A DNA stretch of 10,418 nt from the IMG/VR virus record IMGVR_UViG_3300047409_000308, positions 64,001-74,418 of that record, one strand, 5' to 3'. Made by a program: the position numbers and the translations under genes. Below, one piece after another: positions 2,437 to 10,418 of this stretch. Source of the DNA: a virus (lineage: Duplodnaviria; Heunggongvirae; Uroviricota; Caudoviricetes). The notes beneath the pieces are model-generated. The model had not been told where the DNA came from. It worked only from the letters and a program-made list of their open reading frames with translations, and ran no database searches. The first letter of the stretch is position 1; each line of letters opens with the position of its first letter.

Positions 2437-4014
2437 CTAATAGTAAGACCGCTTGCGACGGTGGGGGAACTGCTCACGGTCGGCTTCGTCCTCGTCGTTA
2501 TCCAAGCGCAGGAAGCCCCCTTGCCTATATCTGGCAAGGGCTAAAACCGTGGAGTCAACAAGATCGTCATAGTCGCCTGCCGGGAAGGAAGCTACTTCCT
2601 CCACGACTTCTTCGGCCCATTTGCGATCCGGTGCCCAGACAAGTCCACTTCTGAATATATCACTCACCCCATTTAAACGGGCTATCTTGTCGTTCGGGGC
2701 GGATTTACTCCCGCGCACCGGGGTGAAATCGGACACCGGGATGCCCATCTGCCGCAACTCGAAGATCAACGGCTGTCCGCTCGCCTTGGCCTCCACGATG
2801 AAGGCATCGGGCTTCCAGTATTTGTACTGACGGAGCGCCTCCGATTTCAACTCCGGGAAGTCCATGCGTTTGCGGAAGGCGTCGAGCAGGATGATGTTCG
2901 ACTGCGTGAGCGTCTTGCCGCCTTCGTCGAATTCGCGCTGGAAGATGCCCCAGGTGGTGCAGGCGGAGTAATTGGCGTTGGTCTTTTGCGTAAATGCGGT
3001 GTCCCAGGTCTGGATGATGAATTCGATGTTCTCGGGCGGGTCGTTCGATTGCCACACCTTCCACCATTCGCGCTTGACGATGGCTCCTTCCTCGGCGGTT
3101 GGGGTTTGCTGGTACTGCGCATTCCACTTTGCCAGGGGAATGTCCGCTTTAATCGCCAGAAGCTGATCCAGGGGCCAGAATTCGGGCCACAGGGCGTTGC
3201 CAGAGGGCAGGATGGCCGGAAGCTCGATCACTTCCCATTGCCCGTCCAGGCCGTTATTTTCAGGAGTCCAGCCAGCCGCCTTGAGGACTTGCCCACAAAG
3301 GTCTCTTTTTCCCCAGCGGGTAGCCACTATTACCAGGCTCCCATTGGGCTGAAGACGTTGACGCGGGCCAGAGGTGTACCACTCGTAGGTCTGATCGAAA
3401 ATCTCTGGCTTATGCAAGGCCAGTTTGGCCTCTTGCTCAGAGTTCGCGTCATCCAGGATGCACAGGTCGGCCCCGATGCCACTTACTGCGCCGCCCACGC
3501 CGATGGCGTAGTAGGTGCCGCCACGGTTGGTATTCCAGCGCCCTGCGGCCTTGTTGTCGGCTGCGAGGTTGACCCCAGGGAACACCTTCTGGAACTCGTC
3601 CGAGCCGATGAGGTTCCTCACCTTGCGCCCAAAGGACACGGCGAGGTCGGCGGTGTGCGAGGCTTGGATGATTTTCTTGCCAGGATACTTGCCCATAAAC
3701 CACGCGGGCAGGAGATAGGAGGCCATCTCTGACTTCGACATCCGGGGCGCGAGGTTCACAACGAGGCGCTTCAGCTTGCCCTGCGCCACCCGCTCGAACG
3801 CATCGGCCATGACCTTGTGATGCGCGCCCTCGATAAACCCCGGCCACATCTTGCGCACGAACGGCAGGAACTCGGTCCTCGCCTTCTGCTGCTCGGTGGT
3901 CTGCTCGATTTTGTCCAGCAACGCCAGCACCTCCCGCTGCTGGTGCGAGGACAGCAAATGGATATTCTGGAGGTAGGACGCAATCTCCGGAGACTGCTGC
4001 GCCGTGGATTCCAT
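2437..4014 (-). CDS. terL: Terminase large subunit (N-terminal ATPase plus C-terminal RNase H-like nuclease)
   Basis: Walker A-like NLAPRMSKSE, Walker B LCILDD, ATRW coupling-motif region, nuclease acidic motifs IIQTWDTAF, IVEAKASG and DDLVDS; position immediately upstream of portal. Confidence 0.95.
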   Translation of the reverse strand: MESTAQQSPEIASYLQNIHLLSSHQQREVLALLDKIEQTTEQQKARTEFLPFVRKMWPGFIEGAHHKVMADAFERVAQGKLKRLVVNLAPRMSKSEMASYLLPAWFMGKYPGKKIIQASHTADLAVSFGRKVRNLIGSDEFQKVFPGVNLAADNKAAGRWNTNRGGTYYAIGVGGAVSGIGADLCILDDANSEQEAKLALHKPEIFDQTYEWYTSGPRQRLQPNGSLVIVATRWGKRDLCGQVLKAAGWTPENNGLDGQWEVIELPAILPSGNALWPEFWPLDQLLAIKADIPLAKWNAQYQQTPTAEEGAIVKREWWKVWQSNDPPENIEFIIQTWDTAFTQKTNANYSACTTWGIFQREFDEGGKTLTQSNIILLDAFRKRMDFPELKSEALRQYKYWKPDAFIVEAKASGQPLIFELRQMGIPVSDFTPVRGSKSAPNDKIARLNGVSDIFRSGLVWAPDRKWAEEVVEEVASFPAGDYDDLVDSTVLALARYRQGGFLRLDNDEDEADREQFPHRRKRSYY

Positions 4015-4015
4015 G

Positions 4016-4041
4016 ACCGCCTGTGTATGGGAACAGGCGGT
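4016..4041. promoter_or_regulatory. Perfect 9-bp inverted repeat ACCGCCTGT-N8-ACAGGCGGT containing a CTGT-N8-ACAG SOS-box core (4021-4036)
   Basis: Read directly: accgcctgt (4016-4024), gtatggga, acaggcggt (4033-4041). It lies between the predicted -10 element and the terL ATG. Confidence 0.6.
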
Positions 4042-5404: not shown

Positions 5405-5480
5405 TGGTGCTACAGGATGGCATCGAACCACCATCGTCTTTCTTACGAGGAAAGCGCTCTACCCATTAAGCTACTGTAGC
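5405..5480 (-). tRNA. trnT: tRNA-Thr(CGT), 76 nt, with encoded CCA
   Basis: Minus strand folds as acceptor GCTACAG/CTGTAGC, D-arm GCTT..GAGC, anticodon stem CTTTC/GAAAG with loop CT-CGT-AA, T-arm GGTGG-TTCGATG-CCATC, then A73 and CCA. G1-C72, C2-G71 and G35/U36 fit Thr identity, and the A15-U48 pair is consistent. Confidence 0.95.
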
Positions 5481-8330: not shown

Positions 8331-8358
8331 ATTTTCGCCTGAACAGGGGTTCAGTCTA
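8331..8358 (-). promoter_or_regulatory. Weak candidate promoter with a palindromic operator CTGAAC-N4-GTTCAG (8339-8354) in its spacer
   Basis: Minus strand TAGACT (8358-8353), 16 nt, GAAAAT (8336-8331). The 6+4+6 palindrome is perfect; the promoter match is only 4/6 plus 4/6. Confidence 0.45.
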
Positions 8359-8365
8359 TTGCCCC

Positions 8366-8395
8366 AAAAAAGGGCTGGTTTTAAGGCCAGCCCTT
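8366..8395 (-). terminator. Rho-independent terminator downstream of the LexA-like gene
   Basis: Minus strand AAGGGCTGG-ccttaaaa-CCAGCCC-TTTTTT. Confidence 0.8.
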
Positions 8396-8486
8396 GAAGG
8401 AGCCTCGCCGTATAGGGATACATGGCAGGCATAGGAGGGTCAAGGCATGACGGAAAGGGAGGAGAATCACCATGCCAAGGCCAGCA

Positions 8487-8717
8487 TCAGACTACACCCT
8501 TTGACTTGCCTTGCGCAACCAGTCTCACTGTCCTTGCCATGTTGTCCCTGACCTCAATCTTGCCCTCGTCCCGTAAACGGCCCAGGAGGTTGAAGATACT
8601 GCCCTTGGACCTCAAGCCTACCCCATGGCACATCTCGGCGTAGGAGGGGCTATAGCCGTGCCTTGCGATGAATCTGCGAACATATTCAAGCAACTCCACA
8701 TCCCGGTTCCTACGCAT
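8487..8717 (-). CDS. LexA-type winged-HTH DNA-binding domain only (no S24 peptidase domain), 76 aa
   Basis: LLEYVRRFIARHGYSPSYAEMCHGVGLRSKGSIFNLLGRLRDEGKI...ARTVRL follows the LexA N-terminal pattern; it ends before any Ala-Gly cleavage site or catalytic domain. Confidence 0.82.
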   Translation of the reverse strand: MRRNRDVELLEYVRRFIARHGYSPSYAEMCHGVGLRSKGSIFNLLGRLRDEGKIEVRDNMARTVRLVAQGKSKGVV

Positions 8718-8745
8718 TGACTCACCCTCTCACCTGCTCCACCCA

Positions 8746-9021
8746 CTACGGGTGCTTCGCCACCCAAGCCCCCACTACCGTCTGTGCCTTACCCATGACC
8801 CCCTTCAGCGCAGAGGGCAAACCATCAAACTCCGCATCGGTCATCAAGCGCAGGCCCAAATACTCAGCCGACTGCCGATAGAACACCAACTTGGCATGGC
8901 AATACAGGCACAGCGAGGCATCCCCCACCTCTGGCACCGCTTCACCACCCACCCAGGTTGCCGCATCGAGCTTGGCCTTGCATACCGGGCAAATGCAATG
9001 TTCAAGCCGCTCTTGTTTCAT
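8746..9021 (-). CDS. Hypothetical Zn-finger protein, 91 aa
   Basis: CPVC...CLYC pair. Confidence 0.75.
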   Translation of the reverse strand: MKQERLEHCICPVCKAKLDAATWVGGEAVPEVGDASLCLYCHAKLVFYRQSAEYLGLRLMTDAEFDGLPSALKGVMGKAQTVVGAWVAKHP

Positions 9022-9706
9022 GATTTTTCCATCGGTTCTTACCTCGATTCAACCACTTATCCTTAGTACTCTCATCTTTGTCCCCACTCGCCTGCGGCTC
9101 AGAGGATCGCTCCTTCGGGCGAAATACTCTCTCCGCCAGCGCATTCTCACTCGCCGTCCGCACCACCACATTGCCCTTGATGAATCCCTTGGCCCGGTCA
9201 ATGCGCCCCATCACGTAGCAGCCATTGCTGACCCCAATCTCATCGTAATGCCCTGAAATCCACCACAATTCCAGCCATTCCACCCGGTTCAACTCCAGCG
9301 CCACGCGGGCTACCTTGGCTGCCGTCCTGAACTGCATATACCGCCTCTGCGCCGTCCTCCCCTCCACCACCCCTCGCGCCTTCTCCAGTCGGTACAACTT
9401 CCGCCATAACCTCCAGTCCTCCACACTCAACCCAGCCTTGCGCGCCAATACTTCCACCCGCTTCGCCCGGTACTCAACCAACCACCCCTCCCGCCGCCTC
9501 TTGCCAGCCAAGTACAGCGGAGAATCTTTCCCGGTAATCCCCTCCCCTTTCAATATCTGCCTCACACGCTCCCTCGTCACCCCAAGCTTTTCACCTATCT
9601 GCCTTAAATTCATGCATTTACCAGCATAGTCTCCTCTTCCAGTGTACATCGCAACCATGCTGTCAGCTAGGTTCTTTCGCGCTAACTGTTTGATTAGACT
9701 TATCAT
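9002..9706 (-). CDS. Sigma70-region-4-like HTH fused to a degenerate HNH-like endonuclease domain (start may be ATG 9658)
   Basis: MNLRQIGEKLGVTRERVRQIL HTH; the C-terminal WLELW..SGH....YVMGRIDRAKGFIKGNVVVRTASEN resembles the DRID..KGY..GN motif of phage HNH-like homing endonucleases. Confidence 0.6.
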   Translation of the reverse strand: MISLIKQLARKNLADSMVAMYTGRGDYAGKCMNLRQIGEKLGVTRERVRQILKGEGITGKDSPLYLAGKRRREGWLVEYRAKRVEVLARKAGLSVEDWRLWRKLYRLEKARGVVEGRTAQRRYMQFRTAAKVARVALELNRVEWLELWWISGHYDEIGVSNGCYVMGRIDRAKGFIKGNVVVRTASENALAERVFRPKERSSEPQASGDKDESTKDKWLNRGKNRWKNHETRAA

Positions 9707-9914
9707 TTACTTTCCATCTGCTTGGATTGAAATGACACCCCCACACCACACTGCACAGTTCATACCCCCTCATGTATTCACAATGCACCCAGTCTCCAGC
9801 CATCATGATCTTGGCCTCATCACCAAATACCGGCTCGCTGTGCTTACAATTACCGCAAACCTCCATTCGGGCGAGGTCAGCGCTTTGCCTGACTTCAAGT
9901 TCTTGTTTTTCCAC
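9663..9914 (-). CDS. Hypothetical Cys-rich protein, 83 aa
   Basis: CGNC...C...C...C; first ORF after the consensus promoter; GTG start with no visible SD. Confidence 0.6.
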   Translation of the reverse strand: MEKQELEVRQSADLARMEVCGNCKHSEPVFGDEAKIMMAGDWVHCEYMRGYELCSVVWGCHFNPSRWKVNDKSNQTVSAKEPS

Positions 9915-9925
9915 GATTATAGACG

Positions 9926-9955
9926 ATTATATACTGAACATCAGTTCGTTGTCAA
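9926..9955 (-). promoter_or_regulatory. Perfect-consensus sigma70 promoter with a GAAC-N4-GTTC operator (9936-9947) in the spacer
   Basis: Minus strand TTGACA (9955-9950), ACGAACTGATGTTCAGTA (18 nt), TATAAT (9931-9926). Confidence 0.85.
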
Positions 9956-9959
9956 CTAG

Positions 9960-10418
9960 AGCGCAATGTTAAGCAAAAATCATACCCGACGAGGATTTTT
10001 CTGAAGTTGTTTTCAACAACTTTGCGCCCGAACCAAAACTGACTGTTGCCATCTGTAGCGTAGCGAGGACCGTAGCGCAGCGAAGGTCGGCGAGCGGAGC
10101 GGCAAATCAATACTGCATCCAATTAACTTATGGTTATATAGTATATATAAGTTGTTGTTAACATAGATATATCTTAACACTGTCCTATGCTAAGAATAGT
10201 GAGCACTTACATAAGTTGTTGTTTCGTATATAAATTTATGAAAAATGAATATCGTTCGTGTGAGTTAGCATTCGTCGCGCGGCAGGAGCCATCGCGCGGT
10301 GCAAGCGGGGGTGCCGGGTACGTGGGGTCTGTAGGGCCAGGGATGGCCCGTAGCACGCGCTACAGCGTGCATCAAGGCACGGTTGGCACCGTGCTATCAC
10401 CCGCTGCATCGGCCTCGC
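9960..10418. other. Gene-free cis-acting region (AT-rich repeat/palindrome block followed by GC-rich hairpin block); candidate origin, packaging or terminal region
   Basis: No ORF in the track; four AAGTTGTT motifs, several short palindromes, three GCGNAGC units and nested GC-rich stems. Confidence 0.55.

Follow-up and report, generated by a model that had tools for sequence, protein, structure and literature searches.

The locus and its candidate operators

The stretch of phage DNA analyzed here (the window; 10,418 nucleotides [nt], GC content 57%) is the final 10.4 kb of a 74,418-bp virus record, IMGVR_UViG_3300047409_000308. Our subject is a palindromic sequence in it, TGAAC-N4-GTTCA, and a 76-amino-acid (76-aa) protein with a LexA-type DNA-binding domain, here called the mini-LexA, as its possible binder. 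Every credible gene in the window is on the minus strand. From promoter P_C, the order is an open reading frame (ORF) of at most 83 aa, a 234-aa helix-turn-helix (HTH) protein, a 91-aa Zn-ribbon protein, the 76-aa LexA_DNA_bind protein, and a terminator (Table 1). Past the terminator follow genes for a vWA-domain protein, a DUF7831 protein, a small XRE protein (67 aa), a weak Ref/HNH-like ORF, a tRNA-Thr, a Dam methylase, terL, and the portal protein.

Table 1. Coordinates of the genes, promoters, candidate operators, and terminator discussed in the text (window positions unless marked as genome positions)
Feature	Position	Strand	Description
Promoter P_C	9926..9955	-	Sigma-70; TTGACA (9955-9950), 18-nt spacer, TATAAT (9931-9926); 12/12
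Operator O_C (candidate)	9934..9949	.	Dyad within P_C spacer
ORF 1 of P_C operon	9663..9914	-	Cys-rich, up to 83 aa; no family match
234-aa protein	9002..9706	-	N-terminal HTH, sigma-70 region-4-like
91-aa Zn-ribbon protein	8746..9021	-	Co-operonic with mini-LexA in L087 and L097/L098
Mini-LexA, proposed repressor	8487..8717	-	76-aa stand-alone LexA-type winged-helix DNA-binding domain
Intrinsic terminator of P_C operon	8366..8395	-	7-9 bp GC stem, then T6 run; strong
Promoter P_B (candidate, weak)	8331..8358	-	TAGACT (8358-8353), 16-nt spacer, GAAAAT (8336-8331); would serve the vWA...terL-portal string
Operator O_B (candidate)	8339..8354	.	Perfect 6+6 dyad CTGAAC-N4-GTTCAG, 12 nt past terminator
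vWA-domain protein, 211 aa	7632..8267	-	First gene past O_B; syntenic in all relatives
Operator O_A (candidate)	genome 16741-16754 (L082:16741-16754)	.	TGAAC-N4-GTTCA; 47.2 kb left of window

The window has exactly two occurrences of the pattern GAAC-N4-GTTC, one at 8341-8352 and one at 9936-9947 (0.16 expected; two or more in 0 of 200 shuffles). An initial annotation of the sequence had described these dyads as intergenic and as the sole matches in the window, and our scan reproduced their exact positions. Scanning the complete genome added a third copy outside the window, the core of O_A at 16742-16753; all genome-wide counts given here come from this phage only, as its relatives are short contigs. 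Three copies against roughly one expected is by itself a mild excess, reached in 21 of 300 shuffles. All three are nevertheless confined to intergenic DNA, which makes up 13% of the genome and would be expected to hold 0.14 copies; three or more fell there in 1 of 2,000 shuffles. Coding DNA contains none (0.9 expected across the genome), contrary to the concern that the motif might be equally common there. The three dyads also match a 15-base extended pattern without mismatch, while the next-best matches in the genome have at least three mismatches. The E. coli-type geometry CTG-N10-CAG, to which attention had been drawn for the copy at 8339, carries no weight (30 such matches in the genome).

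Each dyad lies in the 16- to 18-nt spacer of a sigma-70 promoter or candidate promoter, and its GTTCAG half stops 2 nt short of a -10-like hexamer when read toward the downstream genes (TATGGT at O_A, GAAAAT at O_B, and TATAAT at O_C). The perfect consensus score of P_C bears out the earlier placement of the 9934-9949 dyad between its -35 and -10 elements. At P_C, a second TATAAT (9921-9916) follows the first in tandem, 4 nt away, and the upstream context CTAGTTGACAA is common to P_C and the genome's other strong promoter, at 2084. An equivalent position had been claimed for the dyad at 8339; O_B does fill the spacer between TAGACT and GAAAAT, but the promoter is weak (8/12 by hand reading, under the scan threshold of 9/12). 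O_A sits in a 180-bp divergent region between a leftward operon for RusA and a Toprim/DnaB-type primase-helicase and a set of rightward genes; its promoter, P_A (TTGATT-16-TATGGT), likewise scores 8/12 by hand reading. Because P_A and P_B are weak matches to the consensus, we count them as candidates only.

Two further observations concern O_A. On the minus strand, 6 nt separate an extended -10 element (TGCATAAT) from the RusA ATG downstream, suggesting that the RusA mRNA is leaderless or has a very short leader. A 15-nt identity (CAACAGTTCAATCAA) links the flank of O_A (genome 16745-16760) to L089:3930-3960, at the 3' end of the coding region just upstream of a mini-LexA gene in an unrelated viral contig; it may be due to chance.

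The 76-aa protein is a stand-alone LexA-type winged helix

The 76-aa ORF matched PF01726 (LexA_DNA_bind) with an E value of 1.2e-11 and 44.6 bits (cutoff, 23.7), and its best sequence matches in the PDB were LexA chains (E, 1.8e-4 to 4e-3). The AlphaFold2 (AF2) model (pLDDT, 89.9) has helices at 5-20, 26-33, and 38-50 plus two strands. Its top 10 Foldseek matches were all LexA N-domains, including 1jhh and 3jso (TMq, 0.80-0.81), the latter a LexA DNA complex. As modeled, the protein is a genuine LexA-type winged helix. It is not LexA proper, since it has no S24 peptidase/dimerization domain, the part of LexA with the Ser-Lys dyad and the Ala-Gly cleavage site, and the ORF ends at 76 aa. TIGR00498 (203 positions) was matched over 7-74 only, with 44.9 bits against a cutoff of 110.95, and Peptidase_S24 (PF00717) had zero matches anywhere in the 74-kb genome. 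The last gene of the first operon had been described as a LexA domain without peptidase, and this description stands.

We searched a representative set of 1.8 billion for relatives of the mini-LexA. Among the best 150 of 1,925 representative clusters, almost all were stand-alone proteins of 66 to 130 aa, indicating an established small-protein family rather than a fresh truncation. The recognition-helix motif RSKGS-x-x-N is common to the mini-LexA clade; two other proteins with this motif (P0150 and P0012) come from short contigs without promoters or dyads and are uninformative. Peptidase-less LexA heads are abundant in phages, and searches of the literature brought up no function or operator for stand-alone phage LexA heads. 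What is new is a candidate operator set for a common but uncharacterized protein family; an autoregulated phage repressor whose palindromes overlap promoters is of a known kind.

The dyads are conserved over promoters in relatives

In the relative L086 (mini-LexA 89% identical), a block of ∼44 nt that runs from the dyad through GAAAAT into the first part of the leader is 100% identical. The flanks have diverged, with 6 of 11 nt differing before the block and a 32-nt indel after it. The -10 element of P_B is kept in L086; neither its -35 element nor the alternative hexamer on the opposite strand is. Conservation of the -10 on the vWA side and not of the opposite-strand hexamer indicates the likely direction of P_B. 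The terminator is conserved in L086 and has equivalents in L096, L097, and L099.

More distant mini-LexA proteins are 65% (L087), 62% (L096), 50% (L097/L098), and 47% (L099) identical. Synteny in L097/L098 and L099 comprises the Zn-ribbon gene, the mini-LexA gene, the terminator, vWA, terL, and portal (for L099, terL and portal lie beyond the sequenced stretch compared), and a tRNA-Thr was seen in L097. The layout is the same in both lineages, in that a dyad-bearing promoter leads into the operon with the mini-LexA, followed by the terminator and a dyad before the vWA-terL-portal genes. L097 has three exact copies of TGAAC-N4-GTTCA in 10.8 kb, all three intergenic. One lies in the spacer of TTGCGC-18-TACAAT, and another takes the -35 position in an extended -10 promoter that precedes the operon with the mini-LexA gene. 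The remaining copy immediately follows a TATAAT and comes before the ribosome site of the gene that is first after the terminator. In L099, there are four sites with one mismatch each, all in promoter-like surroundings. Three of them are intergenic; the fourth, at 3050, lies under a called ORF that we suspect to be spurious. A degenerate copy in L096 occupies a TTGCGT-17-TATACT spacer after the terminator.

Across about 12 sites in four lineages, the half-site sequence is retained, with no compensatory changes. The position of the dyad relative to the -35, the -10, and the +1 shifts among relatives, and the core promoter is always overlapped. Retained half-sites in shifting positions, always over the core promoter, point to a repressor operator rather than to an RNA hairpin or a new promoter element. 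The dyads, whose conservation had been left to be checked, are therefore kept in an operator-like manner over promoters. The only window proteins with homologues in the compared stretches of L097/L098 and L099 are the mini-LexA, the Zn-ribbon protein, vWA, terL, and portal; the 234-aa HTH and XRE proteins have none there.

Comparable sites were also seen before other LexA genes. Two full-length lexA genes from phage-collection scaffolds, which served as a positive control, each have 4-5 GAAC-N4-GTTC-like boxes upstream. In Bacillus phage BMBtp15 and Psychrobacillus phage PVJ1, the stand-alone LexA heads are preceded by one-mismatch Cheo-like boxes that overlap their promoters. In L088 (GC content, 68%), GGAAC-N4-GTTCT lies 45 nt upstream of the mini-LexA gene, and in the low-GC contigs L005, L009, and L053, a GTTC-N7-GTTC repeat covers the -10 before stand-alone LexA heads.

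Other searches were negative. Single-protein scans of viral contigs retrieved no close relatives, and no mini-LexA lies near terL in the cultured relatives HTVC027P, MinM2, and 023Pt_psg01. In loci collected by terL, the 15 GAAC-N4-GTTC matches inspected were mostly in conserved sequence that, by hand reading, looks like coding DNA, and no conserved intergenic dyad was seen among them.

Different repeats accompany some distant family members. L046 has three tandem units of ∼58 bp before its mini-LexA-like gene, each with TGTAAC-N5-GTTACA centered on CATAAT. The low-GC L053:182-8800 holds six copies of a 16-bp palindrome, TATTAAC-N2-GTTAATA, 1.4-2.2 kb apart, with the inner TTAAC-N2-GTTAA core exact in three of the six; these are probably phage-specific promoters or terminators.

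Proposed regulation by the phage's own mini-LexA

With some reservation, and from sequence comparison, we incline to the view that the phage's own mini-LexA has TGAAC-N4-GTTCA as its operator and would autoregulate its operon and repress two other promoters. The conserved, three-site circuit is most likely run by this phage-encoded LexA-type winged helix. We place the mini-LexA first because of the proteins shared by the dyad-bearing relatives, the box at its own promoter, the GTTC half-sites, and the controls. A box in the promoter of the own gene is a hallmark of LexA-family regulators. The candidate boxes lie at three promoters, including that of the mini-LexA's own operon, where O_C gives the autoregulatory layout also found upstream of the two full-length lexA genes. 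GTTC-type half-sites, as inverted or direct repeats, are the sequences most commonly read by LexA-family domains (PMC3323433, PMC8565304). The initial annotation had given the mini-LexA a secondary role only; the comparative data point to it as the cognate binder. The sites with their positions and conservation, the protein fold, and the conserved gene order are observed; the identity of the binder, binding in dimeric form, and a repressive effect are inferred.

In the proposed circuit, the host sigma-70 RNA polymerase would fire P_C and transcribe the four-gene operon, with the mini-LexA made last. The mini-LexA would then occupy O_C in the P_C spacer, resulting in negative autoregulation. 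It would also occupy O_B, over the weak promoter of the vWA-to-terL-portal string, and O_A, between the RusA/primase-helicase operon and the rightward genes. Since the S24 domain is absent, RecA-stimulated self-cleavage cannot remove such a repressor; its release would require dilution, an antirepressor, or some other signal.

Several points weigh against this assignment. How a 76-aa protein without the LexA dimerization domain would read a palindrome is a problem that its sequence poses. If a repressor is expressed from an early consensus promoter and shuts a morphogenesis operon as well, it needs a release mechanism, and none was found for an uncleavable repressor over a late operon. Co-occurrence of gene and dyad would equally arise if related hosts shared a LexA of the same specificity. 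L087 has no exact GAAC-N4-GTTC in 2.4 kb, its contig ending 150 nt after the gene. Finally, many distant relatives have terL right behind a mini-LexA-like gene and lack dyads of this kind, and the family may thus serve another function (e.g., one linked to packaging). These terL relatives are L006, L046, L049-L054, L060, L074, and L080.

Alternative binders of the dyads

Promoters gated by host LexA are known from phages (186 tum, GIL01 P1, and the CTXphi type). Here, host LexA could be the main binder, the three promoters being SOS gated in a lysogen or carrier state and the mini-LexA serving as a RecA-insensitive feedback repressor or a competitor of the same specificity. We consider this arrangement unlikely. 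In its favor, Firmicutes and Actinobacteria have GAAC-N4-GTTC as their LexA box (PMC3323433), and by our comparison, the minus strand of O_B agrees with the Myxococcus xanthus SOS box CTRHAMRYBYGTTCAGS (PMC9705874) at 16 of the 17 positions. The combination of a tyrosine integrase with the absence of an S24 repressor is in keeping with direct use of host LexA, as in phages such as GIL01 (PMC4551915). The one-mismatch Cheo-like boxes of the two Bacillaceae phages, from which host LexA and mini-LexA may share sites, and the L088 box are also consistent with host LexA as a binder.

However, all cultured terL/portal relatives infect Gram-negative hosts with other described LexA boxes (PMC3323433). 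These hosts are Pelagibacter, Roseobacter, Caulobacter, Alcaligenes, a gammaproteobacterium, and cyanobacteria, and the boxes described for such groups are GTTC-N7-GTTC or CTGT-N8-ACAG, not GAAC-N4-GTTC (PMC3323433, PMC8565304). The endolysin is a single-domain GH24 lysozyme without a wall-binding module, a kind that appears typical of phages of Gram-negative bacteria. The nearest cellular homologues of the mini-LexA are only 35-45% identical, and the clade consensus as seen in L097, TGAAC-N4-GTTCA, does not include the outer C/G that the Myxococcus box has. When metagenome and genome contigs were scanned with the clade alignment, mainly cellular LexA of Acidobacteriaceae and Saccharibacteria was retrieved. 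The Acidobacteriaceae homologues are LexA proteins of 201 aa, and GTTC-N7-GTTC lies upstream of two of them; no related portal was found in 401 Acidobacteriaceae genomes (matches of 26-30% identity only).

A broader proposal, which we regard as doubtful, is that stand-alone LexA heads are a widespread phage device for reading host-LexA boxes, a damage-triggered but damage-insensitive mimic recurring across several phyla. The leads for it are the BMBtp15 and PVJ1 boxes, the L088 box, the GTTC-N7-GTTC repeat of L005/L009/L053, and the three dyads described here. Cleavage of host LexA would switch on a LexA-head gene placed behind such a box, and the uncleavable product would re-close the phage promoters and possibly host SOS genes.

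Less likely again is that another regulator binds the dyads, be it the 234-aa HTH protein, the 67-aa XRE protein, or an unrelated host factor, and that the mini-LexA has a different job, such as packaging. The window does encode at least two further HTH proteins, and the fact that terL directly follows a mini-LexA homologue in more than 10 distant relatives agrees with a different job. Against this, the absence of the 234-aa and XRE proteins from the compared stretches of L097/L098 and L099 leaves the dyads there without either candidate. A packaging role is further opposed by the character of the protein, a bare 76-aa winged HTH without an oligomerization domain of the small-terminase kind, and by the dyads being on promoters and not in a packaging region. 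That the dyads are RNA hairpins (part of a terminator or a processing site) or chance palindromes is highly improbable: O_B can fold into a 6-bp stem with a 4-nt loop just past the terminator, but O_C pairs at only 4-5 positions, the sites flank divergent promoters on both sides, half-sites are kept without compensatory changes, and the intergenic enrichment speaks against chance.

Two other ideas were dropped. Hairpin promoters of the N4 type, suggested by a 3390-aa gene present elsewhere in the genome, fit poorly with dyad positions that vary relative to promoter elements; no RNA polymerase evidence was sought for this idea. The dyad as a promoter element for the 234-aa sigma-r4-like protein was rejected because the dyad is found at the spacer, the -35, or the +1 among relatives and because that protein is not conserved in the dyad-bearing relatives.

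The terL site and the Ref-like gene

The initial annotation had extended the regulon to a CTGT-N8-ACAG site at terL and had counted a Ref-like nuclease as part of the same theme. Both are outside the circuit. One LexA cannot read both Gram-positive-type and E. coli-type boxes, so membership of the terL site is inconsistent with that of the dyads, and CTGT-N8-ACAG has two matches in the genome where about one is expected. The Ref-like match (PF16786) reached 20.4 bits, below the cutoff of 26.9.

The terL site is the core of an inverted repeat with an 8-bp stem (CCGCCTGT ... ACAGGCGG; window 4013-4036, minus strand). The repeat stops 6 nt short of the ATG of terL, a gene without an evident ribosome site at this place, and L097 has an inverted repeat with a 6-bp stem in the corresponding position. 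The repeat before terL may control translation or packaging.

Other features of the operon and genome

The start of ORF 1 in the P_C operon is uncertain, and an ATG at 9866 would shorten it to 67 aa. The annotated GTG start at 9914 would lie at or before the start of the transcript; thus, the ATG may be the real start. For the 234-aa protein, Atlas matches (scores of <0.9, leads only) pointed to NUMOD/HTH homing-endonuclease-like phage proteins. The Zn-ribbon protein, encoded in the same operon, might be a partner of the mini-LexA, which is speculation.

Upstream of P_C, an AT-rich region (window 10004-10223) contains iteron-like repeats. Two 16-mer copies ending in AAGTTGTTGTT lie 64 nt apart, with an inverted partner at 10004-10022, and words similar to ATTGTTGTTC recur near genome 190 and 260. 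The region is possibly an origin or a second operator set.

Between the mini-LexA stop codon and the terminator (window 8396-8486, minus strand) lies a CCUCC-rich, anti-Shine-Dalgarno-like stretch, with counterparts at L097:4845-5010, L099:7040-7270, and L096:340-500. In L087, L096, L097, and L099, such a stretch is preceded by a promoter-like site of its own. Fold prediction indicates that the stretch in the window is able to pair with the GGAGAAUC repeat of the vWA leader. It may be a small RNA; it had no Rfam match above threshold, and in the Rfam scan of the window, a tRNA alone reached threshold.

The phage encodes a tRNA-Thr(CGT) (window 5405-5480) and a tRNA-Glu(TTC) (genome 30662-30738). 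The tRNA-Thr-like gene of L097 is at the syntenic spot before terL and has the anticodon UGU as read from the sequence. A tyrosine integrase of 289 aa (genome 25474-26343; L083:5474-6343; PF00589, E 6e-29) is present in an otherwise lytic-looking podovirus, in the same arm as O_A and ∼8.5 kb further on; neither an attP nor a CI-type repressor was identified. Both ends of the record carry an identical 127 bp, probably as a result of circular assembly. Phage sequence was present in one DNA sequencing run, a soil metagenome that is probably the source sample, and in no RNA sequencing run among those listed.

Relation to known systems

The pairing of one 76-aa protein with three 14-bp sites is testable, and the natural variants of the relatives can serve as specificity controls. 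If true, it would define how the regulon is organized in a clade of uncultured soil podoviruses and would help to show how a LexA domain that lacks its dimerization domain can read a palindrome. If host LexA binds as well, the phage would carry a copy of the SOS repressor that escapes RecA control.

Among characterized regulators, LexA itself (E. coli, PDB entries 3JSO and 1LEA; the B. subtilis-type box) shares with the mini-LexA the winged-helix fold and the Pfam family, a palindromic operator with GTTC-type half-sites over the core promoter, and a box at the promoter of its own gene. The mini-LexA differs in being phage encoded and in lacking the S24 self-cleavage/dimerization domain, and hence RecA-dependent inactivation. 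Its closest relatives, moreover, are stand-alone proteins of 66 to 130 aa and not cellular LexA. Phage GIL01 is similar in having no S24 repressor, GAAC-N4-GTTC-type promoter boxes, and small proteins that tune repression. However, GIL01 gp7 is a LexA cofactor that binds LexA and not DNA (PMC4551915), and gp1 is a 58-aa MerR-like winged HTH that polymerizes on direct repeats, not a LexA domain (PMC11511902). Lambda CI/Cro-type circuits (PHROG 362, "transcriptional repressor") likewise combine a small phage DNA-binding protein with a few palindromic promoter operators, including its own. In contrast to these circuits, the protein described here has a LexA-type winged HTH rather than the HTH_3/Cro fold, a divergent repressor/cro pair is absent, and the repressor gene is the last in an operon driven by a consensus promoter.

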